64,000 nt of DNA from Vicinamibacteria bacterium (GTDB lineage Bacteria; Acidobacteriota; Vicinamibacteria; Marinacidobacterales; Marinacidobacteraceae): the NCBI GenBank assembly GCA_963668695.2, contig CAXXLQ010000004.1, positions 672,001-736,000 on the forward strand. Reading direction: 5' to 3'. The translations under genes were made by a program, and so were the position numbers. Below the pieces are notes generated by a model. That model ran no database searches. It had not been told where the DNA came from and saw nothing but the letters and a program-made list of their open reading frames with translations. Positions 6,219 to 51,189 of the stretch are shown here, in pieces. The number at the start of each line of letters is the position of its first letter. Positions within the stretch are counted from its first letter, which is position 1.

Positions 6219-6422
6219 TAGGTACTCATGGACAAGGTGGCGCGAGCGCCGAGAGTGGCCAGTCTCCCGGTGGGGGCGAGGCGCCCGGCGGACAAGGCGC
6301 GCGAGGGAGGAATACCTGATGTATTTCGACCGAAGCGCAACGATGAGCGGAGCGGAGCGGAGTGGTTCAGCCGGGATGGATCGCCGGTCGAACGCCGTGT
6401 CACTTTGTTCATGAGTTGCTTA
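6219..6422 (+). mobile_element. ~200-bp palindromic dispersed element, copy A (rpsE-rpmD spacer)
   Basis: Paired ends ACTCATGGACAAGGTGGC / GTCACTTTGTTCATGAGT; core CAAGGCGCGCGAGGGAGGAATAC..GTATTTCGACCGAAGCGCAACG shared with the other copies. Confidence 0.85.
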
Positions 6423-6986
6423 TGCAGAGATCTCCGCCTCGATGTGACTCACGTCCTTGCCTCGAAGCTCCGCCACGGCGGACTTGGAGCGAAGGGAGAG
6501 CAGCGCGACCATCGTCGCCTCCACCACATTCTTCGGGTTTGAGGTGCCGAGCGATTTCGTCAGGATGTCCTTGATTCCAGCAAGCTCGATGACAGCACGC
6601 ACCGGCCCACCAGCGATGACGCCCGTCCCCTCCGATGCAGGCTTGAGGAGAACCCGACCGGCGCCGAACACGCCAACGACCCCGTGAGCAATGGTGGTCC
6701 CCTCGCGGGGAATCTCGGTCAGGTTCTTCTTGGCGATCTCAATACCCTTCTTGATCGCCGCCGGCACCTCTCGGGCCTTGCCGAGACCGAAACCCACGCG
6801 TCCATCCTCATTTCCAACCACTACCAAGGCGGAAAAGGACAGGTTCTTGCCGCCCTTCACCACTTTCGTTACCCGGTTGATGGAGACGACCTTGTCCTTG
6901 AGATCAGGATCGCCGGTGCGCTCCACCTGTGTGTTGCGGGAACCGCTGCGGGGCCTCGACCGGCCGCCGAAATCCATGTTCAGCAC
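6420..6986 (-). CDS. rpsE: 30S ribosomal protein S5
   Basis: [34 protein letters not shown]; start could be ATG 6977. Confidence 0.97.
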
Positions 6987-7333
6987 TTGACGCCTCCATT
7001 CCTTACGGCGTCGGCGAGCGCCTTGATCCTGCCGTGGTAGTGAGCCCCGCCCCTGTCGAAGACAACGGTCTCAATGCCCGCAGCCCGCGCCCGTTCGGCC
7101 AGCTTCTCGCCAACTACGGTAGCGCCCTGGGCATTCCCGCCACCCTCGATCCCAGCTTCGCGACTTCCAGCAGCAACCAGAGTTCGGCCGGCGGAGTCGT
7201 CAATGACCTGCGCGTAGATGTGCTTCAACGACCGGTAGACCGCAAGCCGAGGTCGCTCGGACGTACCGACGATCTTTCGGCGAATGCGGGCATGGATGCG
7301 CTGCCTTCGCTGGCGGCGGGTGGTGATTCGCAT
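6980..7333 (-). CDS. rplR: 50S ribosomal protein L18
   Basis: [36 protein letters not shown]. Confidence 0.97.
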
Positions 7334-7366
7334 GGCTCCCTCTGTCCTCGGGATCTAATCTCGGGA

Positions 7367-7900
7367 TCAGGCCCCGGTCTTCCCGGCCTTCTTGATGAGA
7401 CGTTCGCCGGTGTAGCGAACCCCTTTCTGCTTGTACGGATCCGGCTTCCTGAGGGCGCGCATGCGCGCGGCCACCTCTCCGACGGCCTGTTTGTCAGCGC
7501 CGGACACGACGACATGGGTGTTCTTCTCGATCTGGACGTCAACTCCATCGGGGAGCGGCAACTCGATAGGGTGGGAATAACCCAGGGAAAAGGAGACTTT
7601 CCGGCCCTTTACCCGCGCGCGATAGCCGACACCGACGATGTCCAGTTCCTTCCGGAAACCTTCCGTAACTCCCGTCACGGCGTTCGCGAGGAGAGCCCTG
7701 GTGAGCCCCCAATAGGCCCGGTTCCCGGCCCCTTCCGACAGAGACACCTGAGCCACGCTGTTCTCGAGCTGCACTTCTATGCCCGGAAGAAGCGGACTCG
7801 TGAGGACGCCTTTCGGCCCCTTCACACGGACCTGCGAACTCTCGATCGTGACCGAGACTCCGGACGGGACGGGAATCGGTTTGGCGCCTATGCGGGACAT
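7367..7900 (-). CDS. rplF: 50S ribosomal protein L6
   Basis: MSRIGAKPI, LGYSHP, RKPDPYKQKGVRY. Confidence 0.98.
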   Translation of the reverse strand: MSRIGAKPIPVPSGVSVTIESSQVRVKGPKGVLTSPLLPGIEVQLENSVAQVSLSEGAGNRAYWGLTRALLANAVTGVTEGFRKELDIVGVGYRARVKGRKVSFSLGYSHPIELPLPDGVDVQIEKNTHVVVSGADKQAVGEVAARMRALRKPDPYKQKGVRYTGERLIKKAGKTGA

Positions 7901-7915
7901 GACATCAACCTCGGC

Positions 7916-8311
7916 CTACCACACCTGGCAGAGCACTTCTCCACCCACGCCGAGATGACGGGCCTGGCCCCCGGTCATCACTCCTCGGGACGTGGAAAGC
8001 AGGGTGACACCGAGCCCTCCTTGCGCCTTGGGAATCTTCTGGTACGAAACGTAGACGCGCGTTCCCGGCCGGGAAACCCTTTTCAGCCCCGTCAATGCGT
8101 CGCGGTTGCCGGGGAGCCGCCGCAACTTGATGCGGATCGCGTCCTGGGGCGGAGAGGAGCGTCGCTCCCAACCGTCCACATATCCCTCCTCGTGAAGGAT
8201 CCGCGCAATCTCCTCTTTGAGCTTCGAAGCGGGCATCTCGACAAAATCGTGCCGCGCCTGAATCGCGTTCCGGAGACGGGTGAGCATGTCAGCCACTGGG
8301 TCAGACCACAT
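7916..8311 (-). CDS. rpsH: 30S ribosomal protein S8
   Basis: DPVADMLTRLRNA, RVSRPG.RVY, STSRGVMT, GGEVLCQVW. Confidence 0.98.
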   Translation of the reverse strand: MWSDPVADMLTRLRNAIQARHDFVEMPASKLKEEIARILHEEGYVDGWERRSSPPQDAIRIKLRRLPGNRDALTGLKRVSRPGTRVYVSYQKIPKAQGGLGVTLLSTSRGVMTGGQARHLGVGGEVLCQVW

Positions 8312-8323
8312 CAGAACGCCTCC

Positions 8324-8509
8324 TTACCAACTCGCCTTGATGATGCCGGGAATTTCCCCGGCGAGCGCCAGCTTGCGGAAACACAGACGGCAGAGGCCGA
8401 ACTTCCGATAGTAGGCCCGTGGACGGCCGCAACTCAGGCACCGGTTATAGCGCCGCACCTCGAACCTCGGCCGCTTCTTTGCCTTGGCAATTAGCGATTT
8501 TTTCGCCAA
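8324..8509 (-). CDS. rpsN: 30S ribosomal protein S14, zinc-binding type Z
   Basis: 61 aa, RCLSCGRPR...LCRLCFR...KASW. Confidence 0.97.
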
Positions 8510-8542
8510 AACCCTTTCCTCTACTTCTTCAGCTCTTCAAAA

Positions 8543-9091
8543 CTACGCTTCGCGGCGGGCGAACGGCATCCCAAAGGCGCGAAGCAGTTCTCTCGCTTCC
8601 TCGTCGCTCGTCGCGGTTGTGCAGATGGTTACGTTCATGCCACGCGTCTTCTCGATCTTCGAATAGTCGATCTCGGGGAACACGGATTGGTCCGTCAGGC
8701 CCAGCGTGTAGTTCCCCCGCCCATCGAAAGCCCGTTCCGAAACGCCGCGAAAATCGTGCACCCGCGGCAACGCGATATTGATCAGCCGGTCCATGAACTC
8801 GTACATCCGCGTTCCACGCATGGTGACCCGCGCGCCGACCGGCATTCCGTCCCGGATCTTGAAGTTGGCGATGGACTTCCGGGCACGGGTGACTACGGGT
8901 TGCTGCCCGGTGATCGCAGTGAGATCGGCGACCGCGGCATCGATGAACTTATGTTCCCGCGCCCCTTCTCCTACGCCCATGTTGACGACCACCTTGGTCA
9001 CTCGAGGGACCGCGTGGACGCTCGCAATCTGCAGTCTGGCCCGCAGTTCGGGAGCGATTGTCTCCCGATACCGGACACGAAGGCGACTCAC
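8543..9091 (-). CDS. rplE: 50S ribosomal protein L5
   Basis: [31 protein letters not shown]. Confidence 0.98.
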
Positions 9092-9447
9092 TTGTCAATC
9101 ACTCCCTGGGAACGGACGCTCACCCGAACCTTGCGTCCATCGGTCAGACGGGTCCTCCCGATCCGGGTCGGGAGATTGGTCTCCGGATCCACGAGCATGA
9201 CGTTGCTGATCGCTATCGAGGCCTCTCGTTCGACGACACCACCCTTGATGTTCTGCCGCGGGTTTGCCTTCGTATGCCGCTTGATCATGTTGATGCCCTC
9301 AACGAGGACACGCCCTTTCTCCCGCAATACCCGGAGGATCCGGCCCCGCTTGCCCATGTCGCTCCCCGCCACGATCTGGACCAGATCCTTCTTGCGAACG
9401 TGCAAACGCCGCGGCGCGGGCACAGTGTTCTTGCGGGCCATCGTCAC
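9088..9447 (-). CDS. rplX: 50S ribosomal protein L24
   Basis: KOW motif [24 protein letters not shown]. Confidence 0.96.
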
Positions 9448-9812
9448 AAGACCTCCGGCGCCAGCGAAACAATCTTCATGAACTGGCGCTCGCGCAGTTC
9501 GCGGGCAACCGGGCCGAACACACGGGTTCCGGTGGGCTCGCGCTGCTCATTGATCAGTACCGCGGCGTTGTCTCCGAAGCGGATGTAAGAGCCATCGGCC
9601 CTGCGGTGCTCCTTGCGCGTCCTCACGATGACGGCCCTGACGACCGTGCCCTTCTTGACGGCACTGCCTGGAGCGGCTTCACGGACCGAGGCGGTGATGA
9701 CATCCCCGAGCCGGGCGATGCGACCCACCCCGCCGCCCAGGGGAAGAATGCAGGTCACCCGGCGAGCCCCCGAGTTGTCGGCGACCTGCAGCACCGACTG
9801 CATCTGAATCAT
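9444..9812 (-). CDS. rplN: 50S ribosomal protein L14
   Basis: [16 protein letters not shown]...[13 protein letters not shown]...SLAPEVL; 122 aa from ATG 9812. Confidence 0.98.
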
Positions 9813-10054
9813 GAGGCCCGCTCCAGAATCTTGAGCAACCGGAAGCGCTTCGTCCGAGACTGGGGGCGGCATTCCTCGATCTGAACGCGGTCTCCAATAC
9901 GGCCCTCGTTCTTCTCGTCGTGAACCGCAAAGCGGGTGGATTTCCGATACCGGCGCTTGTACAGACGGTGTTCCACCAGCCGCTCCACAAGCACCGTAAT
10001 GGTCTTTTCGGCGCCGCTCTTAACCACGGTTCCGGCCTTGATCAGTCTTGGCAT
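9809..10054 (-). CDS. rpsQ: 30S ribosomal protein S17
   Basis: [28 protein letters not shown]. Confidence 0.96.
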
Positions 10055-10087
10055 AACGTTCTTTCCGTTCGCATTCTTCTGCGGCCC

Positions 10088-10318
10088 TCAGGAACCAGCA
10101 ACGCTGCTTCCCGGGGCATCGCCCCCGATTTGGAGTTCACGCTCCCTCATGATGGTTTGTAGGCGGGCGACCTCCCGCCGCAGCGTCTGCACCTTGTGCG
10201 TGTGCCCAAGCTGACCGGTGGCGGCTTCGAGTCGGGCATCGAAGAGTTGCCGAGTCACTTCTTGCTGCTTCCTCAGGAGTTCTTCGTGAGTCAACTCCCG
10301 AATCCGGGCGGGCTTCAC
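10088..10318 (-). CDS. rpmC: 50S ribosomal protein L29
   Basis: MKPARIREL...ATGQL...RREVARLQT; synteny. Confidence 0.94.
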
Positions 10319-10737
10319 GATGCCTCCTCCTCAAAGCGACCGACGAACTGCGTTCGCACCGGAAGCTTGTGACTCGCCCGGCGCATCGCCTGAACGGCCT
10401 GCTCGCGGCTGACGCCTTCCATTTCGAAGAGAACCCGCCCCGGGCGCACCACGGCAACCCATCCTTCGGGGCCACCCTTTCCCTTCCCCATGCGGGTCTC
10501 CTGGGGCTTCTTCGTCACAGGCTTGTCCGGAAAGATCCGAATCCAGACTCGACCGGTCCGGCGGACGAACCGGGTGATGGCCACCCGCGCTGACTCGATT
10601 TGGCGATTCGTGATCCATCCCGGTTCCAGCGTCTTGAGACCGAAATCACCGAATGCCACGGTCTGGCCGGTCCAGGACTTGCCCCGCATGCGACCGCGCT
10701 GTTGTTTGCGGTACCGGGTCTTCTTCGGCATCAGCAT
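10315..10737 (-). CDS. rplP: 50S ribosomal protein L16
   Basis: [40 protein letters not shown]. Confidence 0.98.
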
Positions 10738-10761
10738 GACGTCTGTCCTCCCGGATCCTCT

Positions 10762-11466
10762 CTAGGCCCCGCGCGGCGCTGGCTCGTTAGAGCCAGAGGC
10801 TGCCGACTTCGCCGCAATCTCCGGACGCCCCGGCCGACTGACGACGTCGCTGACACCGCGATAAACCCAGCACTTCACGCCGATCTGGCCGTAGGTCGTA
10901 AAGGCCTCGGCGAACCCGTATTCAATGTCCGCCCGCAGCGTATGCAGCGGGAGTTGTCCTTCCAGATACCACTCCGCCCGGGCGATGTCGGCGCCGTTGA
11001 GCCGGCCGGCGCACCGAATCCGGACTCCCTTGGCTCCATTGCGCATGGTGTTCTCGATCGCTTTACGCATCGCCCGCCGAAAAGCGATCCGCTTCTCCAG
11101 CTGGAGGGCAATGGACTCGGCGACCAGTTGCGGGTCGAGCTCCGGCTTGATGACCTCCAGAGGACGAATGTGGACTTCCTTTCCGGTGCGCTTGCGCAGA
11201 TCCCGGGTGAGCTTTTCCACTTCGGTGCCCTTGCGGCCAATGATGATTCCGGGCCGGGAGGTGTGGATATAGATGTTGAGCTTGTTGCCCGGCCGCTCGA
11301 TCTCAACGCGTGAGATGCCCGCGTGGTAGAGGCGCTTCTTCAGAAAGCGACGCAGTTGCAGGTCTTCGTGCAGCGAGTCCCGGTAGGAACTATCCGCATA
11401 CCACCGAGAACGCCAGGTCTTGCTGTATCCAAGCCTGAAGCCGTGCGGGTGTACTTTTTGACCCAT
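10762..11466 (-). CDS. rpsC: 30S ribosomal protein S3
   Basis: [32 protein letters not shown]. Confidence 0.98.
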
Positions 11467-11468
11467 TC

Positions 11469-18479: not shown

Positions 18480-18705
18480 TAGCAGCCTGTGGACAAAGTG
18501 GCGTGAGCGCCGAGAGCGGCCAGTTCTCCCGGTGGGGGCGAGGCGCCCGGCTGACAAGGCGCGCGACGGAGGAATACCCAGTGTATTTCGACCGAAGCGC
18601 CAAGCACCGCGGAGACCCCGGAGCGAGAGGGATGGGGGACGGGAACACCCGGCCCCGGTCCCTCTTGAGCCGGGAGTGCCGCGGGACTTTGTCCACCGGC
18701 TGCTA
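18480..18705 (+). mobile_element. Palindromic dispersed element, copy B (abuts the rpoC stop)
   Basis: Ends TAGCAGCCTGTGGACAAAGT / ACTTTGTCCACCGGCTGCTA; shared core; divergent 3' arm. Confidence 0.85.
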
Positions 18706-21700
18706 ATGCACTTCTTCGGCCAGTTCGGCCGCCTGGTTGGCGTCTCGCTGAAGCATGGCCTGGCGATGCGCGTCGATCTCCTCCGGCAGTACGAAACGCC
18801 GATGCTCCGCGAGCCCGGTGCCCGCAGGAATCAGCCGACCCATGATCACGTTTTCCTTGAGCCCGCGGAGGTAGTCCACCTTGCCCATGAGCGACGCCTC
18901 CGTGAGGACCTTGGTGGTCTCCTGGAACGATGCGGCGGAGATGAAGCTGTCGGTCGCGAGCGACGCCTTGGTGAGGCCGAGCAGCGTCGGTTCTCCCTGA
19001 GCCGGCTGCCCCTCTTCCGCCAGAGCTTTCCGGTTCGCCTGGGCGAACTCATACCGATCCACCGTCGAATCAACGATCAGATCCGTGTCTCCGACGTCAG
19101 TAACCCGTACCCAGCGCATCATCCGGCTGATGATCACCTCGATGTGCTTGTCGTCGATCACGACACCCTGCAACCGGTAGACCTCCTGGATCTCGTGGAC
19201 CAGATAGCGTTGAAGCTCCCCTTCACCCAGAACCCGAAGAATGTCGTGCGGATTCCGCGGCCCGTCCATGAGCGGATCGCCGGCCCGCACTTCCTCATTC
19301 TCCCGAACGCTGATGTGGACTCCTCGTGGCACCTCGTATTCCCGAACATCGTCGGTAACCTGCGAGGTCACGGTGATCACCCGCTTCCCCTTGCGAACAT
19401 CGCCGTAATGCAACCGGCCATCGATCTCGCTGATGAGAGCGGGCGCCTTGGGCGCCCGAGCTTCGAAAAGCTCCACGACGCGCGGCAGGCCTCCGGTGAT
19501 GTCCTTTGTCTTGGTGGTCTCCCTCGGGATCTTGGCGAGAACGTCGCCCGGGCGAACGGCGTCGCCCTCCTTGACCTCAAGGTGGGCACGCGAAGGCATG
19601 AGGTAGGTCCGGGGATCTTCCCCCGCAGCACCATGGACCTCGATGCGCGGCTCGAGGCGGTCGTCCTGTGACTCGATGATCACCGGCTGCGACCGGAAGG
19701 TGACGTTGTCCACCTCCTGAATCATCGTCACGTCCGCGACGATGTCGCGGAAATGAACTGCCCCCTCTTGCTCGGCGAGAATCGAGAAGCTGTACGGATC
19801 CCATTCGACGATCACCTGGCCGGAGCTGACGGAGCTGCCGGGCGCCACCTTGATGCGGGCACCGTAGACCACCGGGTGGCTTTCGAGAACACGGCCGTCG
19901 CCGTCTCCCACTTCCACGGTACCGGCGCGGTTGATGACCACCCGATTGCCGTGCCGATCCGATACGGTCCGCAGATTCTCCGAGAACTGCAGGACGCCGT
20001 CGTGGTGCGCCTCAAGGGCGGAATTCTCGAAGACGCTCGCCGTCCCGCCGATGTGGAACGTCCGCATGGTCAGTTGCGTTCCGGGTTCTCCGATGGATTG
20101 CGCGGCGATGATGCCTACCGCCTGCCCAAGATCGACCAGCCGGCCGGTCGCGAGGTTGCGCCCATAGCACATGGCGCAGACGCCTCGCCGTGCATCACAG
20201 GTGAGGACCGACCGAATCTTGACGCGGGCCACGCCCGAGCCTTCGATCGCGGTTGCGATGTCCTCCGAGATCTCCTCACCAGCGTCCACGATGCGGTCCC
20301 CACGGAAATCTTTCACCGCTTCAAGGCTGACCCGCCCCACGATCCGGTCCCGGAGCGGCTCGATGACCTCTCCCGCCTCGATGATCGGCTCGGCGTAGAT
20401 ACCCCGGAGCGTCCCACAATCGCGCAGGGTGACGATGACGTCCTGAGCCACGTCGGCAAGCCTGCGTGTGAGGTAACCGGCGTCCGCGGTCCGGAGCGCC
20501 GTATCCGCGAGTCCTTTCCGTGCTCCGTTGGTCGAGATGAAGTACTGGATGACGCTGAGCCCCTCACGGAAGTTGCTGGTGATCGGCGTCTCGATGATTT
20601 CTCCCGACGTCTTGGCCATCAGTCCGCGCATCCCGGCGAGCTGCCGGATCTGCTTTTCGCTGCCGCGGGCGCCGGAGTCCACCATCATGAACACCGGACT
20701 GAACTGTCCGGTCTCCCGCTCCCGGGCCTGCATGGTCTTCATCATGTCCTCGGCCACCTTGTTTGTGGCATTCGACCAGACATCGATGACCTTGTTGTAT
20801 CGCTCTCCCTGCGTGATCGCGCCCTGCTGGTACTGCTCGTCGACCCGGCCCACCTCCTCCTTGGCCTCCTCGACCAGGCGCGCCTTGTTCGGCGGAACCA
20901 CGAGATCACCGAGTCCTATGGACGTTCCGCTCCGCGTCGCGTACTCGAAGCCAACATCCTTCAGGGCATCGAGGACGTCCGCAGTGCCTTCGAGGCCGTA
21001 CTGCTTGTAGACGAGACGAACCAGGCTCTGAACGCCCTTCTTCTTCAGCACCCCGTTCACAAACGGCAGATCTGCGGGAAGGCGGTCGTTCAGGATCACC
21101 CTTCCTACGGTCGTTTCGATCCGCTTCCCGTCAACGCTGGCAACCTTCACCCGGCGCAAGTCCTGACTGTCATGCGTTTCGAGGATTTCTCCAGTGAACC
21201 GCAGCTGGATCGGCGTCAGCGTAGAAACCTGGTCAAACTCGTGAGCGATCAGCACTTCCTCGGCCGAGGCGAAGCTCTGCTTCACCTCCGGCGGAACGAC
21301 CTGCGGCTTCGTCAGGTAGTAGATGCCGAGAACCATGTCCTGAGTGGGAACAGCCAGCGGCCCGCCATGTGCCGGCGAAAGAATGTTCCGGGAGGATCGC
21401 ATCAGCAACGCCGCTTCCACCTGCGCCTCCGGACTCAGAGGAACGTGGACTGCCATCTGGTCGCCATCGAAATCGGCGTTGAAGGCACTGCAGACCAACG
21501 GATGAATGCGGAGCGCCTTCCCCTCGACCAGGACCGGCTCAAAGGCCTGGATCCCAAGCCGGTGGAGAGTCGGAGCACGATTCAGCAGCACGGAATGCTC
21601 GCTGATGACCTCTTCGAGATAGTCCCAGACCTCGGGGCGCTGCTCCTCCACAAGCTCGCGTGCCTGCTTGATCGTCGCCGCGAGGCCCTCATGCTCCAAC

Positions 21701-23043
21701 CTGTTGAAGAGGAAGGGCTTGAACAGCTCCAGCGCCATTTTCTTGGGAAGGCCGCACTGATGGAGCTTCAGCTCCGGCCCGACCACGATGACCGATCGAC
21801 CCGAGTAGTCCACCCGCTTCCCGAGGAGGTTCTGGCGGAACCGGCCCTGCTTTCCTTTGAGGGTGTCGGATAGCGATTTCAGCGGCCGATTGTTCGTTCC
21901 CTTGAGGACTCGTCCCCGGCGACCGTTGTCGAACAGCGCGTCCACAGCCTCCTGCAACATGCGCTGCTCGTTCCTCACGATCACGTCGGGCGCGCGGAGC
22001 TCGAGAAGCCGGCGAAGGCGATTGTTGCGGTTGATGACCTTCCGGTAGAGCTCGTTGAGATCACTCGTCGCGAAGCGTCCACCATCCAGAGGAACAAGCG
22101 GACGGAGATCCGGCGGAATCACCGGGATGACGTCCATGACCATCCATTCCGGCAGGTTGCCTGACTTGCGGAAGGCGTCCACCACCTTCAGCCTTTTCGC
22201 AGCCTTGGTTCGCTTCTGGATGGAACGCTCGTGCCGCATAGCGTGGCGCAACTCGACGGCCAGACTCTCGAGATCCGCTTCATGAAGCAGGCGCTTCGCC
22301 GCGCCCGCGCCCATTCCGGCGCTGTAGGTGCGCCCCGGGCGCTTCAGTTTCTCGCGGAACTCATTGTCGGTGCGACCAAAGAGCCGCTTCAGCAGGCGAT
22401 CCTGATCTTCCGTGACCACCTGGCCCTTGCGCAGGGTCCCGAGTCTGATATTTCCGACGGTGCAACCATCGTCTCCCTCGTCGAATGAGAATGCGAAGAG
22501 CTGCTGCAGGAGCTGGACCTCATCCAGCGTCAGGGACATCGCCTTCTCCTTGAGGAGCGAGATGTCAACGTCTCCGGGATCCAGGACTATGTACGACTCG
22601 TAATAGAGAACCCTCTCGAGCTCCCGAGGCGTCAGGTCCAGGACCTGTCCGATGCGGCTCGGCGGAACCTTGAAGAACCAGACATGGGACACGGGGCAAG
22701 CCAGTCCGATGTGTCCGAGGCGACTTCGACGAACCGACGCCTGCGTAACTTCCACTCCGCACTTGTCGCAGACGACTCCCCGGTGCTTCATGCGCTTGTA
22801 CTTGCCGCACAGGCATTCCCAATCGCTGATGGGACCGAAGATCTGAGCGCAGAACAGTCCGCCCCGTTCCGGTTTCAGAGTGCGGTAGTTGATGGTCTCC
22901 GCTTTCGTGACCTCACCATGTGACCAGGCTCTGATCTTCTCTGGAGACGCGATCGAGATCTTGATGGCGTCGAAATCAGAGCTGAAGGTTTCCCTCTCTT
23001 CAAGGTCCGGGAAGACTCCGGCGGTTTCCCTGGTTGTCTGCAT
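18703..23043 (-). CDS. rpoC: RNA polymerase beta' subunit
   Basis: CLCGKYK...CDKC zinc finger, [25 protein letters not shown]. Confidence 0.99.
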
Positions 23044-30723: not shown

Positions 30724-30799
30724 TGGCAGGCCAGGAGGGGCTCGAACCCCCAACCCCCGGTTTTGGAGACCGGTGCTCTACCGATTGAGCTACTGGCCT
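30724..30799 (-). tRNA. tRNA-Trp(CCA)
   Basis: 76-nt cloverleaf AGGCCAG...CTCCAAA...GGTTCGAGC...CCA; rpmG-trp-secE context. Confidence 0.97.
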
Positions 30800-30863
30800 T
30801 CGCACCCCTCACATCACCAAGCGGCAATAAACCCGCGACGGAACCCGTAGGACGCATCCGAAT

Positions 30864-30911
30864 CCAACCTGACAGCCAACCTGACAGCCAATCTGACAGC
30901 CAATCTGACAG
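30864..30911. repeat. 4 x 12-bp tandem repeat CCAA(C/T)CTGACAG
   Basis: Read directly in the rpmG-tRNA-Trp spacer. Confidence 0.9.
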
Positions 30912-30964
30912 AGCCATCGCTCCGTACTCCCGATCAGCCAAGTCCATCGGCAGCCTGGGCGAAG

Positions 30965-31129
30965 TCAACGCGTCTCCCGGTGCAATACATGGGTCCTGCA
31001 GAAACGGCAATATTTGCTCAGTTCCATCCGGCCGGGATGAGTTGTCCGGTTCTTCGTCGTCGAATACGTACGCCGCTTGCAGTCCGTGCAGGCGAGCGCG
31101 ACGATCTGACGCTTCTTTTCGCGAGCCAT
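30965..31129 (-). CDS. rpmG: 50S ribosomal protein L33 (zinc type)
   Basis: [16 protein letters not shown]...[16 protein letters not shown]; start ATG 31129. Confidence 0.96.
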
Positions 31130-31229
31130 TCTTTCCCCGTCGGTTGTGCTCCGTTGGAATCTCCCATGCATGGCCCCTTCGCAGACGACTCGCGTCGCCC
31201 GCGGAGAGACATTTTTCCGTTAACGCCGC

Positions 31230-32417
<1,188 letters not shown>

Positions 32418-32500
32418 CTGGTCTTCTCCTTGTTTGCTGCGAGATTTGCTGTGAGACCTGCGGAATCAGATCGTCCCCACAGTAGGGGTGGGGGCGAGAG

Positions 32501-32575
<75 letters not shown>

Positions 32576-32671
32576 GGAGACGAGGGCGGGGGCCGAAAGT
32601 GCTCCGGATCAGCCGGACGCCGAAGCATCGGCCACGGTCCCGGGACAACACGGACTGCGCCGCGCCTTTCA

Positions 32672-32747
32672 TGGAGCGGGAGACGGGATTCGGACCCGCG
32701 ACCCTCAGCTTGGAAGGCTGATGCTCTGCCAACTGAGCTACTCCCGC
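32672..32747 (-). tRNA. tRNA-Gly(TCC), atypical T-loop
   Basis: GCGGGAG..TCAGC-CTTCCAA-GCTGA..GCGGG-TCCGAAT-CCCGT..TCCA. Confidence 0.93.
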
Positions 32748-32927
32748 ATTATGGAATGAAAGAACCGCCGACAGTGGACGAACCGGGGGGCGAACCGGCG
32801 AACTCCGATCCGCGGACGCCAGTACGGCATGTCCCCGGTGGGAGCGCGTCGGATCGACCCGGAGCGAGCCGTTGTCGGTAGTCAAAGTGGGCAAATGGCT
32901 TCGGTTGGAGGAAACTTCGGAAGGAGG

Positions 32928-33013
32928 TGGTGGAGCGGGGAGGATTCGAACCTCCGAAGGCATAAGCCGGCAGGTTTACAGCCTGCTGCGTTTGGCCGCT
33001 TCGCTACCACTCC
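32928..33013 (-). tRNA. tRNA-Tyr(GTA)
   Basis: 86 nt with long variable arm; GCAGG-CTGTAAA-CCTGC; CCA encoded. Confidence 0.96.
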
Positions 33014-33198
33014 GCCCGAAGAAAACTCCGCCGCTCACGAGACTGGAAAGCAACCTCCCTGATAACCAACCGGTCGATCCGGACCAATCATCCGGACCAA
33101 TCATCCGGATCAACCCCTCCAGACCCAGCACCGTCCGGTCCGATCCGTTAGGGTCGGACCCGAAAAGGTCCGGCCCGATGCGATCTGGCCCGATCCGG

Positions 33199-33271
33199 AG
33201 CTGGCGAAGGGACTTGAACCCTTGACCGGCTGATTACAAATCAGCTGCTCTGCCTCCTGAGCTACGCCAGC
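33199..33271 (-). tRNA. tRNA-Thr(TGT), CCA not encoded
   Basis: CTGA-TTTGTAA-TCAG anticodon arm, GGTTCAAGT; followed by CCG. Confidence 0.95.
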
Positions 33272-33368: not shown

Positions 33369-33591
33369 CAGCGGTCGGTGGGCAAAGTGGCGTGAGCGCC
33401 AAGGCCAGCCAGTTCTCCCGGTGGGGGCGAGGCGCCCGGTTGACAAGGCGCGCGAGGGAGGAATACCGAGTGTATTTCGACCGAAGCGCAACGATTGAGC
33501 GCCTCGCAGAGGCGCGATTCAGCCGGGATGTATCGCCAGCCGAGCCCCCACCGGGAGAACTGGGCCGCGTCACTTTGTCCACCGGCCGCTA
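33369..33591 (+). mobile_element. Palindromic dispersed element, copy C (abuts the rlmB stop)
   Basis: 25-bp terminal pairing with 4 G.T wobbles; shared core; two opposed 19-bp modules. Confidence 0.88.
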
Positions 33592-39087: not shown

Positions 39088-39333
39088 CTATGCGTAGGGC
39101 AGGAGCGCCATCTGCCGGGCCCGCTTGATGGCGACCCGGATCTGACGCTGTGCTCGGGCGCTCGCCCGCGATACGCGGCGAGGCGCAATCTTGGCGCGAT
39201 CACCGAGGAACTCGCGAAGAAAATCCACGTCCTTCCAGTCCACCCGGTCTACGCCATTCAACACTGGGTTGACCCTCACCCGCCGTACGGTCGGCCGACC
39301 TCGGCGGTTAGGGGTCGCAAGTCTGTCGCTCAT
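39088..39333 (-). CDS. rpsR: 30S ribosomal protein S18 (Cys-free type)
   Basis: VDWKDV..L..FL..RAKI.PRR...QR....AIKRAR.MALLPY. Confidence 0.95.
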
Positions 39334-40288
39334 GAAGTCTTCTCCTTGTCATTTCGAGTGGACCCGTCCCAAGTGGACCGGTCAGAGGACCGATCAGAGG
39401 GCCGGTCAGAGGACCGATCAGAGGGCCGGTCAGAGGACCGATCAGAGGACCGGTCAGAGGACCGGTCAGAGGGCCGGTCAGAGGACCGATCAGAGGACCG
39501 GTCAGAGGACCGATCAGAGGACCGATCAGAGGACCGGTCAGAGGACCGGTCAGAGGACCGGTCAGAGGACCGATCAGAGGACCGGTCAGAGGACCGGTCA
39601 GAGGACCGGTCAGAGGACCGGTCAGAGGACCGATCAGAGGACCGATCAGAGGACCGGTCAGAGGACCGATCAGAGGACCGATCAGAGGACCGATCAGAGG
39701 ACCGATCAGAGGACCGATCAGAGGACCGATCAGAGGACCGATCAGAGGACCGATCAGAGGACCGGTCAGAGACCGGTCCTCTGACCTCGCGCGTCGGGCT
39801 CGCTCGGGATCTTTTTCGCCGGCCTCCCCAGCCGCTTCCCTACTGGCCCTGGCGGCGGCCTCGGCTGCGGCCTCGACGGCGCGGGCGGCCCGTTCCTCGC
39901 GTCGGCGAAGGTCCGCCGCCTGGTCACGCTCGCGGCTCTCCTTGTCCGTCCGCAGCACGATAAACCGCAAGACGCCTTCAGCAAGGCGAACGCGACTCTC
40001 GATACCCCTGATGGAAGCTGGAGGCGCATCGAAATAGCAAAGGATGTAGAGGCCTTCGTGGTGCCCGGCGATGGGATACGCAAGCCGTCGCCGCTCCCAC
40101 GGCTTCAGGCTCGCGATCTCGCCGCCTTGCCCCTTGACGATTCCCTCCACGCGCTCGACCACCGCCAGGGAGGCTGCGTCATCGAGGGTCGGATCCAGAA
40201 TGAACATGAATTCGTATCCGTTCATTAGGGAATCCGCTGGTGGGGGGCCCGCCGGGGCCGTCGTTTGGGGACTCGGCTGTACGCTCAT
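39308..40288 (-). CDS. rpsF: 30S ribosomal protein S6, read in frame through a tandem array
   Basis: [28 protein letters not shown]; no stop until 39308-39310; start 40288 or 40225. Confidence 0.9.
39375..39770. repeat. 33 x 12-bp tandem array GG(A/G)CCG(A/G)TCAGA
   Basis: Read directly; encodes (T/I)GPL repeats on the minus strand. Confidence 0.97.
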
Positions 40289-41910: not shown

Positions 41911-42438
41911 TAGCAGTCCATGGACGAAGTCGCGCGGCGTTCAACCGGCGCTGCATCCCGGCTGAGACGTGCCGCTCTCAGTCGTGGCGCGCAGCGACGC
42001 GGTGAACAGCCGGTGGTGGAACCCGCGTGAGCGCCGAGGCCGGCCAGTTCTCCCGGTGGGGGTCCGGCTGACAAGGCGCGTGAGGGAGGAATACCGGGTG
42101 TATTTCGACCGAAACGCAACGATGAGCGGCGCGAAGCGACGCGGTGAACAGCCGGTGGTGGAACCCGCGTGAGCGCCGAGGCCGGCCAGTTCTCCCGGTG
42201 GGGGCGAGGCCCAGTTCTCCCGGTGGGGGTCCGGCTGACAAGGCGCGTGAGGGAGGAATACCGGGTGTATTTCGACCGAAACGCAACGATGAGCGGCGCG
42301 CAGCGACGCGGTTCAGCCGGGATGGATCGCCGGCCGAGCCCCCACCGGGAGAACTGGGCCGCGTGGGTTTCATCACCGGTTGTTTGGCCGGGATGGATCG
42401 CCGGTCGAACGCCGTGTGGGTTTTGCCACAGGCTGTTG
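41911..42438. mobile_element. Nested cluster of the palindromic element (copies D1-D3) between prs and rplY
   Basis: Inverted 3' arm at 41911-41980; two cores; copy starts at 42004 and 42146; two successive 3' ends at ~42385 and ~42438. Confidence 0.88.
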
Positions 42439-43531: not shown

Positions 43532-43603
43532 CTGGGGCGGAAGGATTCGAACCCTCGTAGACCGGAACCAAAATCCGGCGCCTATCCCCTCGGCCACGCC
43601 CCA
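43532..43603 (-). tRNA. tRNA-Gln(TTG), CCA not encoded
   Basis: TGGGGCG..CCGGA-TTTTGGT-TCCGG..GGTTCGAAT..CGCCCCAG; ispE-tRNA-Gln-prs context. Confidence 0.93.
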
Positions 43604-44582: not shown

Positions 44583-44936
44583 TAACGGCCTGTGAACAAA
44601 GTCGCGCGGCCCAGTTGCGGTGAAGATGCACTCGCGCCGGGACGCCGACAACCCGGATGGCGCGCAGGCAAGGGAACGCCGGTCTTCAGACCGGCACCGC
44701 AGCCCGCAGGGCCGCGAAACCGCGTACCGCCGATCGCGAACAAGCGCGGGGACGCGGCGCCGGGCCAACGTGAGTGCAGCTCGCTCTCCCAACCCCGGAT
44801 GGCGCCACCGCCCATCGCTCCCCCTACCCGGGGCCGCGCCTTTTTCATGTTGGCGGGGCATGCAGGCGGACCCGATCATGGGGGTTTCTCCCGGTGGGGG
44901 CCTCGGCGCTCCCGCCACTGTATCCACAGGCTGTTA
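44583..44936 (-). mobile_element. Long variant of the palindromic element (copy E): family ends, unrelated interior
   Basis: Ends TAACGGCCTGTGAACAAAGT / ACTGTATCCACAGGCTGTTA; conserved core absent. Confidence 0.75.
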
Positions 44937-45137
44937 ACAGCCTGTGGTGGAACCCGGGTGAGCGCCGAGAGCGGGGAGGCGCCCGGCTGACAAGGCGCGT
45001 GAGGGAGGAATACCTGGTGTATTTCGACCGAAACACAACGCCGAGCGCCGCAAAGCGCCAGTTCTCCCGGTGGGGGGGCGGTTCAGGCGGGATGGATCGC
45101 CGCTCGAACGCCGCGTGGGTTTCACCACAGGCTGTTA
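44935..45137 (+). mobile_element. Palindromic element, copy F (shares a TA with copy E; abuts the lipoprotein stop)
   Basis: Ends TAACAGCCTGTGGTGGAACCC / GGGTTTCACCACAGGCTGTTA; shared core. Confidence 0.88.
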
Positions 45138-45989
45138 ACGCTCCGGGAGCCTGGAGGTCCGACTCAGTTCCCGGATCTCAGCCCTTTGGTAACCCGCGGG
45201 GATCCGGACCCGGAAGGAATCGGCATGCAGGGTGGCGTTCACCTCGAGTTCCTCGATGGTGAGGGTGGCCTGGACGCGCTGCGAAGCGACCTCGACCCGG
45301 CGCGGCACCTGTCGCCCCTGCCGGCGGTAGTTGCCGGGATAGCGTGCCTCGTAGCCGGGGGCCACCACCCGCCGCACCTGCGCCTCGGGCCCCGGACCAT
45401 CCCACCAGATTTCAGCGCCACTCTCGAGGACGACTGACCCGCCGGCCGGGAGCGAGCGGATGTTCGCCGGACCCCCGACGGGCGCGCCACTCCCGACGAG
45501 GAGGGCCGCAACCTGCTTGAGCCCAACGGAAACTCCTAGCAGCGGGCCGGTGAATTCGCTGAGTTCCACTCCTTCGGCGAAAGCTCGCTCCCCGGGGACT
45601 ACCAGGCGGACATCACCCGGTGCGGCAACGACGGTCCAGCGGGAGCCCCCGACCGGAGCGAAGAGTTCGAGTCTCATGGCCTCGACCGCTTCCGGGTCCG
45701 CTCCCTCGGCCGGGCGGGTGAACACGACGAGCAGACGTCCCGAAAACCGCCCCCGCTGACCTTCTCCGCGCAGGCCCACCACGGCCTGATAGCGCCGAAC
45801 GCTGGCCGCCAGGGTGGCGGTCTCGTCCAGTAGTCGAAATGCGTCGGTTTCGTTCAGGGGTACCGGCGGCATCCGGGGGTTCCGGGTAGCGCATCCGAAT
45901 GATGCCCCGATGAACCAGAGCACCAGGACCCGGAGCGCTGCGTCGCGGCGCCGGCGTCGGCCGATTCGCGGCGGCTCCGGCGGAACCAG
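45135..45989 (-). CDS. Putative lipoprotein in the lolB position between the TPR gene and ispE; start codon unresolved
   Basis: RRRRR, hydrophobic stretch, lipobox-like SFG-C; beta-rich body; LolA/LolB-like fold is inferred from synteny only. Confidence 0.65.
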   Translation of the reverse strand: MVPPEPPRIGRRRRRDAALRVLVLWFIGASFGCATRNPRMPPVPLNETDAFRLLDETATLAASVRRYQAVVGLRGEGQRGRFSGRLLVVFTRPAEGADPEAVEAMRLELFAPVGGSRWTVVAAPGDVRLVVPGERAFAEGVELSEFTGPLLGVSVGLKQVAALLVGSGAPVGGPANIRSLPAGGSVVLESGAEIWWDGPGPEAQVRRVVAPGYEARYPGNYRRQGRQVPRRVEVASQRVQATLTIEELEVNATLHADSFRVRIPAGYQRAEIRELSRTSRLPER

Positions 45990-46006
45990 GCTCGCTCGCC
46001 CGCTAC

Positions 46007-46226
46007 CAGCAGCCTGTGGACAAAGTCTCGCGGCCCAGTTCTCCCGGTGGGGGCTCGAGCGGCGATCCATCCCGGCTGAGCACTCCGCTTCGCGTCGTTC
46101 AACGTTGCGCTTCGGTCGAAATACACCCGGGCCAGTTCTCCCGGTGGGGGCTCCTCCCTCGCGCGCCTTGTCAGCCGGGCGCCTCATCGGTCTCGGCGCT
46201 CACGCCACTTTATCCACAGGCTGCTA
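46007..46226 (-). mobile_element. Palindromic element, copy G (abuts the TPR-gene stop)
   Basis: Ends CAGCAGCCTGTGGACAAAGT / ACTTTATCCACAGGCTGCTA; core on the minus strand; two 19-bp modules. Confidence 0.88.
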
Positions 46227-48239: not shown

Positions 48240-48497
48240 AGAACGGGAATTTACCGCTGCCGGCAAGTGAGCGCCGCTCGCGCGCCGCCGTGAGCTCGGT
48301 TCCGCCGGTGGATGGAACGCTGGGCAGGTCTCCCGACGCAGCCGTTCACACCGGCAGAACTGGCCGGCGCCCCGTGGTAATGGGGCGCATCCGCCTCGGC
48401 ACCTGGCGTCTCGGGCGCCATTCGGTCCGGCGCCTCCGACAAGAGAACCGCCTGGCACTCGCTGATCAGAGGTGCGCTTCCCGAACGAGGGGAAAGG

Positions 48498-49250
48498 CTG
48501 ACGGCAGCGAACATTGTTCGCTGCCCGCCTGATCGGGGGGAATGTGTGAAAGGGGCACTCCCCCCTTCACGATCAACAACGACCCATCGGAACTCGCCAC
48601 CGCGCGCCAGCTGAACAGCGATGTGAGATCCAGGCCCGCGGAATCGCGCGTCTCGCCCGCCTGCGACGGGCGATGCCGACCGGAGGTCGGCACTCCCTTC
48701 CCACCGCGCCGTCGGGATGAACGGCAGGGCGCATTTCCCGGGACGGCGCGGACCCCGAGCAGGTAGAGACTGACGGCAGCGAACTCTGTTCGCTGCCCGC
48801 GTGACCGGGGGGAAAGTGTGAAAGGGGGCACTCCCCCTTTCATTTTCCGGAGCGCGGTAAAAGCCGCGCGCAGACGCCGGAGCGGGAGCGCCTGGGTTCG
48901 GGGTCACCCGAACCCCAGGCGCTCCTGACTCGGCAATCAACAACGACCCATCGGAACTCGCCACCGCGCGCCAGCTGAACAGCGATGTGAGATCCAGGCC
49001 CGCGGAATCGCGCGTTTCGCCCGCCTGCGACGGGCGATGCCGACTGAAGGTCGGCGCTCCCTTCCCACCGCGCCGTCGGGATGAACGGCAGGGCGCATTT
49101 CCCGGGACGGCGCGGACCCCGAGCAGGTAGAGACTGATGGCAGCGAACTCTGTTCGCTGCCCGCGTGACCGGGGGGAACGTGTGAAAGGGGGGCTCGCCC
49201 CCCTTTCACAAACCAACAACAACCCATCGGAACTCGCCGCCGCGCGCCGC
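48498..49250. repeat. Tandem array of ~272-bp multi-hairpin units (BIME-like) downstream of purH
   Basis: Unit starts at 48498, 48770 and 49134; near-identical sequence; several internal palindromes. Confidence 0.92.
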
Positions 49251-49378
49251 TGGCGCGCAAGGGAGTTTCGATGGCCGGCGCGGAGCGCCGGGCGGTTCCC
49301 GGACGGGGCCCGAACACAAACAAACACCATGGCACCCACTCGACAGCAACCCGTCGCCCCGTCCGGGGACCGCTCGAC

Positions 49379-50965
49379 CTAATGCCGAAAGTGGCGGGCG
49401 CCGGTAAGGACCATCGCCAAACCCCGCTCGTTGGCAGCGTCGATGACCTCCTGGTCCCGCACGGAACCACCGGGCTGGATCACAGCGGAAATTCCCGCAT
49501 CAGCGAGCACTTCCAGCCCGTCGGCAAACGGGAAGAACGCATCCGATGCCGCCACCGCACCATCGAGCGAGGACTGAGCCTTCTCGACCGCCAGCCGGCA
49601 GGAGTCGAGCCGGCTCATCTGACCGGCACCCACCCCGAGAAGCGCGCTGCCGCGGCCAACGACGATGGCGTTGGACTTGACGTGTTTCGCCGCCTGCCAC
49701 ACGAAGCGGAGACCCTCCCATTCGGACTCGGACGGCTCGCGCCGGGTGGCCACCCGATAGGCGGACTCGTCATCGCCGCGGTCCCAATCCTGGACCAGCA
49801 GGCCGCCCGCAACCCGCGCGAAGGTACGCCCGCTCGGAGCGAAAGCGCGGAGATCGGTCATTTCGATCAGGCGGAGGTTCTTCTTGCGGCGGAGCCGAGC
49901 GAAGGCATCCGGATGGAACGCGGGCGCGGCAATGGCCTCCAGAAACGTCGAGGCCATCTCCTTCGCGGTGTCGAGGTCTACCTCCCGGCTAAGCGCGACG
50001 ATGCCACCGAACGCTGAGACGGGATCGGTGGCTCGGGCGGCCCGATAGGCGTCCAGCAGAGTTTCGGCAACGGCGGCGCCGGCCGGGTTCGAGTGCTTGA
50101 TGATCGCCGCGGCGGCTTCATCCTGCCCGCGGGCGTTCGCGAGATCGGCGACCAGCCGAACCGCTGCATCGAGATCCAGAATGTTGTTGTAGGAGAGTGC
50201 CTTGCCGTGGAGTTGCCGGGCGCCCGGAATGCCGGCGCGCCCGGGTCCCGCGTCGCGGTACAGGGCAGCGGCCTGGTGAGGATTCTCCCCGTAGCGGAGT
50301 TCGGCCACTCTTTCGAACTCGACGGAGACCCGTTCGGGGAAGGCAGCGTCGTCGGCTCCTGGCGCGGCGAAGGAAGCCGCCACGGCGCGGTCGTAGGCAG
50401 CGGTGGCCTGGAAGGCAGTGGCGGCGAGCCGGCGGCGGAGCGCCAACCCGGCGTCGGGCTCGGGATCGTCCAGGGCGGCAAGCACCGCCGCATAGTCGGC
50501 GGAGTCCACGACCACTGCGACGTCCGGCCAGTTCTTGGCCGCGGCGCGGACCAGGCAGGGCCCTCCAATGTCGATGTTCTCTCGAACTTCGTCCTCTTCG
50601 GCCCCTCGGGCCACCGTCTCTTCGAAGGGGTAGAAATTCACCACGACCACATCGATGGGCTCGATGCCGAGTTCGCGAAGGGAGGCGAGGTCATCGGGAC
50701 GCGAACGCCGAGCGAGGATCCCCCCATGGATTCGCGGATGGAGGGTCTTGACGCGGCCATCGAGGATTTCGGGATGTCCGGTCACCTCGGAAACCCCCCG
50801 TACCGCGATGCCGCAATCCTCAAGAAATCGCGCCGTGCCACCACTGGCCACGATCTCGAACCCGCGCTCCACCAGACCGCGGGCGAAGGCGTCGAGACCT
50901 TCCTTGCGGCTGACGCTGAGCAACGCACGTCGCGGAGTGGGGGCGTTGTCGGTCGGGTCATTCAT
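49379..50965 (-). CDS. purH: Bifunctional AICAR transformylase/IMP cyclohydrolase
   Basis: [51 protein letters not shown]; start ATG 50965. Confidence 0.98.
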
Positions 50966-50986
50966 GGGGCGAAGGGCGGCGGATGC

Positions 50987-51189
50987 TAGCAGCCCACGAA
51001 CAAAGTCACGCGGCGTTCGAGCGGCGATCCATCCCGCCTGAAACACTCCGCTGCGCGTCCTTCATCGTTGCGCGTCGGTCGAAATACACCCGGGCCAGTT
51101 CTCCCGGTGGGGGCTCCTCCCTCGCGCGTCTTGTCAGCCGGGCGCCTCGCCGCTCCCGGCGCTCGCGCCACTTTATCCGCGGACTGCTA
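50987..51189 (-). mobile_element. Palindromic element, copy H (between divergent purH and selA)
   Basis: Minus-strand ends TAGCAGTCCGCGGATAAAGT / ACTTTGTTCGTGGGCTGCTA pair with 4 G.T wobbles; shared core. Confidence 0.88.

Follow-up and report, generated by a model that had tools for sequence, protein, structure and literature searches.

A dispersed, highly amplified MITE family with one-strand wobble pairing in a sponge-associated acidobacterium

MITEs that descend from DDE insertion sequences (ISs) of the IS1182/IS5 type are short, non-coding and dispersed and carry terminal inverted repeats (TIRs), features shared by the repeat described here, which also has IS1182-family-like tips. IS1182-related MITEs of 160–169 nt are listed for Methanosarcina acetivorans (PMC3852290). 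Compared with MITEs of this type, the copy number is far higher here (about 650), the interior is more conserved than the TIR, the element as a whole forms a covarying rod whose wobble pairs are on one strand, and none of the ISs found has a TIR that matches the major subfamilies over its full length. IS1272, whose structure-dependent transposition is termed "stem-loop replacing", belongs to the same transposase family, IS1182, as the candidate considered below. This IS is described as targeting inverted-repeat or stem-loop structures (PMC5678879), and the same paper refers to Siguier et al. on palindrome-targeting IS1182 members. As reported there, IS1272 insertions lack a target-site duplication (TSD) and replace the target hairpin, whereas here TA is duplicated and the structural signature lies in the element and not in its target. 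REPINs are dispersed, hairpin-forming elements of about 100 nt with compensatory stem changes (PMC3116915). Like the present family they occur in hundreds of copies in intergenic DNA, but they need a Y1 HUH RAYT gene, of which the host genome has none, and they differ from this family with its TA duplication and DDE-type termini. Known single-stranded DNA (ssDNA) transposons show a replication-direction bias. Correia/ERIC-type bacterial MITEs, which fold as RNA, duplicate TA, are intergenic and co-transcribed, and form long hairpins; to our knowledge, the transposase of the Correia elements is still unidentified. These MITEs come from a different phylum and differ in sequence from the present family, and we know of no report in them of strand-specific wobble confined to propagated variants. 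How MITEs attain very high copy numbers despite cut-and-paste transposases is an old open question. The family described here is an unusually clean data set, with hundreds of young copies and a candidate transposase, to which four nearly closed sister genomes add many insertion polymorphisms.

Copies in the window and in the genome

In the window, the whole 64-kb stretch of DNA that was analyzed, the exact core pattern occurs six times against zero expected, and nhmmer identified nine core-bearing pieces. The dispersed element that an earlier note on this DNA had described was thereby confirmed, and its copies in the window are real, but the family does not consist of about 10 copies: an nhmmer search of the whole genome resulted in 670 core matches (345 on the plus strand and 325 on the minus strand), and we place the genomic copy number at ~650–670. 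The repeat is a MITE, that is, a non-autonomous, non-coding DNA transposon too short to encode a transposase. After merging, 733 BLAST loci span 152,648 bp, or 3.7% of a 4.1-Mb metagenome-assembled genome (MAG; completeness 91.7%, contamination 9.3%). The MITE occupies this share of a sponge-symbiont genome, its copies lie at stop codons and within operons, and their orientation bias depends on transcription; it is therefore relevant to how these uncultured genomes are annotated, assembled, and interpreted. The host is a sponge-associated acidobacterium of the Vicinamibacteria ("Ca. Marinacidobacterium"-like), and the MITE is massively amplified in this host and its relatives.

The basic form of the MITE is 185 nt long, a length found in 46 of 180 clean elements, and the remaining main classes measure 203–258 nt, the longer forms resulting from addition of an 18–19-nt module or from dimerization. 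An almost invariant core of ~60 nt, the most conserved part of the element, is set within a long covarying stem. In the invariant core hairpin the internal loops are symmetric and purine-rich, and the apical stem carries a compensatory change in one diverged subfamily. Two core types were distinguished: in type II, which accounts for ~45% of the copies, a 19-nt module stands in place of the type I apical loop and the apical hairpin is lost. The termini of the MITE are also borne by a 227-nt cargo of unrelated sequence.

Within the window, copy A (6219..6422, plus strand; nhmmer core 6277-6410) measures 204 nt from TA to TA and has a type I core and one left-arm module. Its right TA falls inside the stop codon of a minus-strand ORF (6420..6986); the site is occupied in the sister genome G027, and the syntenic sites of sister genomes G026 and G025 are without a copy. 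Copy B (18480..18705, plus strand, 226 nt), which adjoins the stop codon of a minus-strand ORF (18703..23043), is canonical at its termini and throughout its left half, other sequence replaces the right half of its core, and nhmmer matched the left half only (18539-18606). Copy C (33369..33591, plus strand, 223 nt; nhmmer core 33428-33578) combines a type I core with degenerate tips and a left-arm module that pairs with its complement on the right arm, and is missing at the syntenic sites of G027 and G025. The sequence at 41911..42002 (minus strand) reads as a reverse-oriented right-end copy fragment followed by a rearranged piece, with an nhmmer core at 41997-41924 (model positions 65-133). 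It is followed by a composite "dimer" (42003..42438, plus strand) with two nhmmer cores, at 42060-42178 and 42227-42369, whose internal junction was found again at other genomic loci. Copy H (44935..45137, plus strand, 203 nt; nhmmer core 44976-45124) has a type I core, a left TA (44935-44936) common to the right tip of the neighboring fragment, and a right TA inside the stop codon of a minus-strand ORF (45135..46187). That neighboring sequence (44583..44934, no strand assigned) reads as a terminal copy fragment fused to a different dispersed repeat, which carries the 19-nt module elsewhere. Of the locus previously proposed at 44583-45137, the part from 44935 onward therefore stands, and the remainder is mostly not the MITE. 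Both copy F (46007..46226, minus strand, 220 nt; nhmmer core 46186-46020) and copy G (50987..51189, minus strand, 203 nt; nhmmer core 51149-50999) have type II cores. Their core strand, on the minus strand, is co-oriented with the operon, contrary to the antisense placement first proposed for copy F. Since the 19-nt module replaces the loop, copies F and G also lack GGAATAC. The outer coordinates first given for copies A, B, H, F, and G agree with the TA-to-TA ends in the sequence.

Fold-back on one strand

The whole element folds back on itself, and does so better on one strand, as had been claimed. For four window copies, minimum free energies on the sense and antisense strands are -102.5/-69.3, -152.6/-131.7, -115.4/-103.7, and -128.3/-98.3 kcal/mol. 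Folding with RNA parameters favors the strand carrying GGAGGAATAC in 153 of 155 copies, the mean difference being 20.1 kcal/mol, and folding with DNA parameters favors it in 154 of the 155; the sense strand is also the more stable one in each of 11 copies taken from other, distant assemblies, whose stems differ. The excess of G.T over A.C on the core strand is likewise real and large, amounting to 487 versus 23 at outer-stem positions 3-26 (summed over the position table) and to 850 versus 321 by an arm alignment without preference for transitions. Because the copies share ancestry, the number of independent propagated changes behind this bias is perhaps 12–20, not hundreds. The proportion of standard pairs among 64 is 98.3% for the sense strand and 86.1% for the antisense strand, a comparison that favors the sense strand because the underlying RNAalifold structure was predicted on it. 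Fifteen of these pairs covary, with both sides changed among 31 copies from other genomes, a number matched by none of 500 shuffles, with 3–5 in slid controls; the ends of different copies thus differ and yet stay complementary, as the earlier note had observed.

The G.T bias is restricted to variants that went on to multiply, and rare private variants are unbiased. Core-stem variants at a frequency of ≤1% comprise 64 that make a wobble and 71 that make A.C, and at ≤3% the counts are 167 and 173. For the outer stem, singletons gave 3 G.T versus 5 A.C, and variants in at most two copies gave 11 versus 13. Outer-stem variants present in at least four copies fall into ~11 wobble position/type combinations, with a sole A.C variant (position 3, seven copies). 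Additional wobbles without any A.C were found in the inner stems and in the L002 variant, a separately diverged subfamily. As propagated variants follow single-strand pairing rules and private ones do not, this split suggests that selection acts when the element transposes.

Termini, target sites, and candidate transposase

The TIRs open, next to the flanking TA, with RCAGYCTGTGG, the complement of which lies at the other end, and outer-stem positions 4-13 are nearly invariant Watson-Crick pairs in 155 copies. Regular expressions for both termini with YTA/TAR flanks matched 251 of 655 copies. Complementary tip bases occur in 156 of the 180 clean elements and identical flanking 4-mers in only 88, statistics that favor a 2-bp over a 4-bp target duplication. 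The duplicated TA lies at YTAR, a 4-bp palindromic target that is frequently the TAA or TAG stop codon of a gene. The copy B site at rpoC is empty in G026, with a single TA (GGC-TA-GTG), and filled in the host genome and in G027, with TA at both ends. Four further polymorphic sites provided eight filled/empty comparisons, six with a single TA and two compatible with a single TA after a substitution. MITE insertions are polymorphic between sister species, with at least 15 presence/absence differences over 64 kb across the host genome and the three sister genomes (G025, G026, and G027), which are also rich in copies.

The MITE is probably moved in trans by an IS1182-family DDE transposase, judging from the termini and the resident transposase gene, and the proposal that the element is non-autonomous, with its enzyme encoded elsewhere, is supported. 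The resident transposase scores 360.4 bits against NF033551 (IS1182; cut-off 270), with one intact copy in the host genome and roughly 9 to 19 near-full-length copies each in G025, G026, and G027. Its TA flank lies within CTAG in each copy inspected, and as the target is always CTAG, TA and CTAG duplications are indistinguishable for this IS. The MITE and the IS have TA flanks and the tip G(C/G)AG(C/T)CTG in common. In the resident element, identity with the MITE covers TA and about 8–10 tip bases and then ends, and between a variant MITE subfamily and an IS1182 element of genome G014, 14–15 of the first 15 bases match. Terminus pairs ≤3.3 kb apart yielded no IS that carries the major MITE terminal repeat (RCAGCCTGTGGTG...) in full. 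A match to the ends of a DDE IS, which the earlier note had set against its own reading, is thus present at the tips of the resident IS and gone beyond ~10 bases. IS630-family elements, which are classic TA duplicators, occur in all four copy-rich genomes and may be the mobilizer instead; the tips of three kinds of IS630-family IS inspected differ from the MITE termini.

Propagation of the family

The best reading of these data, which we hold with moderate confidence, is a DDE-mobilized MITE whose propagation selects for the fold-back of one strand. The one-strand G.T bias would arise at the propagation step, and the chances appear even that it does so and that continued transposition is limited to lineages with a core strand still able to fold on itself. 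In the most economical version, an ssDNA hairpin of the core strand would present the transposase with a re-created pair of double-stranded ends, so that only lineages with a folding core strand would multiply, and resident copies would be free of this constraint. The specific proposal that an IS1182-family DDE transposase amplifies the MITE through such a strand-specific ssDNA fold-back intermediate, tolerating G.T and not A.C, is a tentative one that we regard as doubtful. If true, it would be direct genomic evidence of the way in which a cut-and-paste family can attain hundreds of copies.

An ordinary double-stranded cut-and-paste MITE, with its wobble an accident inherited from a few imperfect master copies, would account for the classical TIR, TSD, and IS-like tips as well as for the unbiased rare variants, and the copies are indeed non-independent, most G.T cells tracing to about a dozen polymorphic positions. 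We nevertheless consider it unlikely. Plain double-stranded cut-and-paste does not predict one-strand wobble, which counts in favor of strand-specific reading; the propagated outer-stem combinations are ~11 to one for wobble over A.C, the L002 variant and the inner stems add wobbles only, and the polarity is kept in distant assemblies with different stems. Selection on a structured core-strand transcript, for example as a substrate of a dsRNA nuclease or through a protein bound to the core, with G.U tolerated, is quite unlikely in our estimate, even though strand-specific wobble and covariation are as in an RNA helix and the invariant core hairpin, with its purine-rich loops and compensatory apical change, fits the same picture. 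Against an RNA stand the loss of the apical hairpin in type II copies, the lack of a purifying bias in resident copies, and a simple scan of two copies that revealed neither a sigma-70-like promoter nor a terminator. Furthermore, the core strand is antisense to neighboring transcription in 70% of co-directional contexts, and read-through would therefore mainly yield the other strand. A described Rfam family, a possibility raised in the earlier note, was not found either: in an Rfam 15 search of the window only tRNAs attained the gathering score, and the best E-values for copy C (0.3–5.5) were to unrelated eukaryotic families.

The mechanism first put forward was that the element moves through an HUH enzyme, either IS200/IS605 TnpA or RAYT, as a single-strand substrate of the attC kind, or else through an RNA intermediate. 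The strand-specific hairpin signature is what such an enzyme or substrate would share, and REPINs too are described as having compensatory hairpin changes (PMC3116915). However, Y1_Tnp (PF01797) had no match in the host genome or G026, both full of MITE copies, and weak partial matches (30–40 bits) in G025 and G027, and no reverse transcriptase candidate (RVT_1, PF00078) was found in the 91.7% complete host genome, for which reasons neither an HUH nor an RNA-intermediate mechanism is supported. The two ends, mutually inverted up to the TA duplicated at palindromic YTAR, pair across the element and do not form separate subterminal hairpins, and with gene direction set aside there is no replication-direction bias (115 versus 100 in convergent and divergent contexts). 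Together with the IS1182-like tips and the 227-nt cargo, these results leave the HUH/attC reading largely refuted and highly improbable.

With gene positions from a crude GC3/codon caller, the core strand is antisense to co-directional neighboring genes in 297 copies and sense in 126 (n = 423). Folding of host mRNA therefore cannot explain the wobble bias, as had been argued before. The antisense share is 62% (73 of 117) in copies without a private difference and 76% (211 of 277) in older copies, from which we infer a slow purging of resident copies whose strongly folding strand is transcribed.

Abundance and anatomy of the element

The core pattern of the dispersed element described in the earlier note occurs six times in the window (C4:672001-736000) against none expected, and the search was extended to the whole source genome (4.10 Mb, 67% G+C, four contigs). 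The family proved real and much larger than the note had seen. A profile search found nine core-bearing pieces in the window and 670 genome-wide, 345 on the + strand and 325 on the - strand, and a BLAST search with five window copies as queries resulted in 733 loci after merging, which together cover 152,648 bp or 3.7% of the genome. The exact 29-nt core pattern is present in at least 11 public assemblies, among 85 stretches listed, and these assemblies are labelled Ca. Marinacidobacterium, Vicinamibacteria, or sponge Acidobacteria. Rfam, one of the resources suggested for comparison, contains no family for the element. Literature searches returned no paper on 'Marinacidobacterium' and, for MITEs in sponge-symbiont Acidobacteria, only arthropod mites or unrelated subjects.

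Clean termini at both sides were found for 180 elements, of which 46 are exactly 185 nt including the TA at each end; further common lengths are 203/204, 221/222, 239/240, and 257/258 nt. The full terminal repeat of the major subfamilies is RCAGCCTGTGGTG. The steps of 18-19 nt are due to a module, CCAGTTCTCCCGGTGGGG(G), which is found in either orientation at six or more different positions of the element without visible duplication (in the window, for example, at 6262-6280, 33410-33430, 42047-42065, and 42188-42230). In type II copies, which make up about 45% of the total and include window copies F (46007-46226) and G (50987-51189), both on the - strand, the module takes the place of the apical loop of the core hairpin. 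Genome-wide the module occurs 1,444 times, with 1,257 occurrences in MITE territory and 187 outside; 180 of the latter are intergenic, some inside another repeat family, and seven are in predicted genes. Composite dimers of 368-438 nt share an identical internal junction at several loci, the window locus 42003-42438 among them. The predicted fold of the consensus 185-mer is a rod that bears a single side hairpin, at -123.4 kcal/mol for the core strand (the strand carrying the invariant core) and -97.1 kcal/mol for the other. The core contains GGAGG-N8-GTG, which was considered as the start of a small peptide, but type II copies destroy this spacing. Another MITE family, 227 nt in length, is represented by five of the 180 clean elements and found outside the window at C4:463549-463775 and C4:1470099-1470325; it has the same TA|RCAGCC..GG termini and an unrelated interior. 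That these termini enclose unrelated DNA shows that they are what the enzyme reads.

The window also holds repeats of other kinds. Two 275-nt direct repeats of 95% identity at 48490-49203 belong to a different repeat family, and a related 78-nt unit occurs there three times and contains a GGCAGCGAAC..GTTCGCTGCC hairpin each time. A 12-nt tandem repeat at 39288-39830 (about 540 nt, 33 register copies) lies inside long open frames of both strands. Another dispersed repeat (...GGCAAGGGAACGCCGG TCTTCAGACCGGCACCGC...) at 44583-44934 adjoins copy H (44935-45137), and elsewhere in the genome this repeat carries the 19-nt module at its GCCGG|TC junction. Six tRNA genes are located on the - strand at 30727-33271 and 43532-43603; the one at 33199-33271 is separated from copy C (33369-33591) by about 100 nt.

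Target site and insertion history

The left flank of an element reads YTA and the right flank TAR. Of the 180 clean elements, 156 begin and end with bases that are complementary to each other, whereas just 88 have the same 4-mer on either side; in 74 of the 88 this 4-mer is a palindrome, TTAA or CTAG. A 4-bp duplication of YTAR was therefore ruled out, and the duplicated target is TA. Comparison of filled and empty sites confirms this. At the site of copy B (18480-18705), downstream of the ORF at 18703..23043, two TAs are present in the filled source genome and in the filled sister genome G027, and one TA is present in the empty site of the sister genome G026. Four more polymorphic sites allowed eight filled/empty comparisons; the empty site has just one TA in six of them, and in the other two it is consistent with one TA altered by a substitution.

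Across the 64-kb syntenic block, many insertion differences in both directions were found among four genomes. Copies A (6219-6422) and B are missing from G026 and from a third sister genome, G025, copy C is missing from G027 and G025, and at least eight insertions found in G026 or G027 are missing from the source genome. Such differences between species, with flank identities of 87-97%, indicate that the family has been active since the species split. Genome-wide, 65 of the 180 clean elements exactly adjoin a predicted stop codon; the target at these stops is the TA of TAA or TAG, and the first base of the element (A or G) restores the stop. The five window copies whose right end is clean all follow this rule: the TA at that end belongs to the stop of the neighbouring - strand ORF (6420-6422, 18703-18705, 33589-33591, 45135-45137, and 46224-46226).

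Candidate mobilising enzymes

The earlier note had inferred mobilisation through a single-stranded DNA or RNA intermediate, by analogy with the strand-specific hairpins of HUH and integron attC substrates. The enzyme class so proposed does not hold: the features are those of a DDE MITE with IS1182-like tips, and a search of the source genome found no Y1 HUH transposase and no RVT_1 reverse transcriptase. A Y1 search likewise gave no match in G026, which is as rich in copies as the source genome, and only weak partial matches in G025 and G027. The element is classed as a DDE-mobilised MITE, with the IS1182 family as its most likely partner. One intact IS1182-family element is present at C4:1825962-1827544 (NF033551, 360.4 bits, cut-off 270) and encodes a 440-aa transposase at C4:1826057-1827376; the genome also has a second, disrupted copy and an isolated left end. 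When the IS1182-family ends of eight genomes were compared (the source genome, its sisters G026, G025, and G027, and the genomes G014, G011, G006, and G002), all of those examined were flanked by TA within CTAG and started with G(G/C)AG(T/C)CTG, the tip of the MITE. In a diverged MITE subfamily (6619-6793 of the retrieved stretch L002), 14-15 of the first 15 bases match the left end of the IS1182-family element of G014. The transposase of this family is present in about 9 to 19 near-full-length copies in each of the three sister genomes, with identical or nearly identical scores. Candidate MITE matches number 537-706 in the source genome and these sisters and 103-208 in the rest of the genus, a comparison confounded by relatedness and assembly quality; the source genome and its three sisters together hold some 2,400 copies. 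IS1182-related MITEs have already been published (PMC3852290).

Alternatively, the IS630 family, which is also present in the source genome, may mobilise the MITE. Both IS1182 and IS630 types insert at the TA of MITE ends, as do all four IS630 copies in one set and others besides; however, the tips of the three kinds of IS630-family element examined differ from the MITE termini, and the family was rejected as their source. An intact IS630-family element about 4 kb upstream of the window (C4:667054-668193; 930-2069 of the retrieved stretch L087) encodes a 362-aa transposase (NF033545, 274.9 bits) and sits in the TA between two MITEs, and its copies in G027 are 98.9% identical and likewise located at MITE-end TA sites. 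Among the seven DDE_Tnp_1 matches in the source genome, similar tips were found in the IS1182 type only. There are also two rve matches and one match to the TnpB zinc ribbon, the latter below the cut-off.

Strand asymmetry, its origin, and gene orientation

The strand signature proposed in the earlier note is borne out. When the left arm was aligned locally to the reverse complement of the right arm over 655 copies, with every mismatch weighted equally, 850 G.T and 321 A.C pairs were counted on the core strand. At outer-stem positions 3-26, the position-by-position table sums to 487 G.T versus 23 A.C cells; of the 171 A.C cells in the table as a whole, 148 are at position 27, where an internal loop opens. 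Among 155 oriented clean copies, the core strand is the more stable in 153 when RNA parameters are used (mean difference 20.1 kcal/mol) and in 154 with DNA parameters, and it is so in all 11 copies from more distant assemblies as well. The covariation proposed as a check was also found: for 31 distinct copies of 183-187 nt taken from other genomes, RNAalifold gave 64 pairs, with 98.3% of cells standard pairs and 15 pairs changed on both sides, and the covariation score of 0.179 (0.094 in shuffles) was reached by none of 500 shuffles. Slid controls of this structure gave 33-40% pairing, and the 64 pairs mirrored onto the other strand were 86.1% standard. Prediction of this structure used the core strand and so favours it; the unbiased counts given before are the stronger evidence. 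Covariation reaches the interior of the element, where columns 36-40 pair with 151-154 in five complementary haplotypes and the core pair 67/100 alternates between UA (25) and CG (6); the diverged subfamily has a compensatory change in the apical stem itself.

Wobble-making transitions (C>T and A>G) and A.C-making transitions (G>A and T>C) are about equally frequent among rare variants. Counts over the 36 core-region pairs are 64 versus 71 at column frequencies of at most 1% and 167 versus 173 at most 3%; for the outer stem, single-copy pair types comprise three G.T and five A.C, and those in at most two copies 11 and 13. About 11 G.T position/type combinations with at least four copies contrast with one A.C variant. 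The G.T bias is thus carried by variants that later multiplied, as would be expected if selection acted on core-strand pairing at the birth of new copies and not on resident ones. Core-strand deamination as a mutational source of the G+T excess is not supported by the counts, as unpaired core columns hold 16,026 G+T and 14,963 A+C and the rare variants have no consistent C>T/A>G excess. A double-stranded cruciform, being symmetric, would not produce this one-strand bias, and neither would a transposase that recognises each end as duplex DNA. An invariant interior, a covarying rod, and a one-strand wobble limited to propagated variants make an unusual combination.

G.U or G.T is tolerated by RNA and single-stranded DNA alike, so the data do not separate the two as the paired form. 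We lean towards single-stranded DNA because the source genome has no reverse transcriptase, because a scan of two copies found no promoter, and because neighbouring transcription would usually not copy the core strand; the scan, which covered sigma-70-type promoter sites and terminators, found neither. MITE sequence is present in contigs of RNA libraries from two studies, some extending into unlike flanks, but these show neither strand nor ends and may include DNA, and library depth summed over about 650 copies is not readable as expression. Older work on fish MITEs reportedly proposed amplification of MITEs in the form of fold-back single strands. In the IS1182 family one member, IS1272, is already reported to act on stem-loop structures (PMC5678879).

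Of 656 MITE anchors, all but four are outside predicted genes. Where both neighbouring genes run in one direction, the core strand is antisense to them 297 times and sense 126 times (z ~8); gene positions are from our own gene caller, whose errors would blur this bias and not create it. Replication strands are split 356 versus 274 overall but 115 versus 100 where gene direction is neutral, so the overall split is read as a by-product of gene orientation and a replication-strand bias was rejected. The antisense share is 62% (73/117) in copies with no private difference and 76% (211/277) in older copies, and part of the bias is therefore present early and grows with age. This rise fits a slow loss of copies that place the tightly folding strand in operon transcripts. 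In the window, six pieces are antisense and three are co-oriented.
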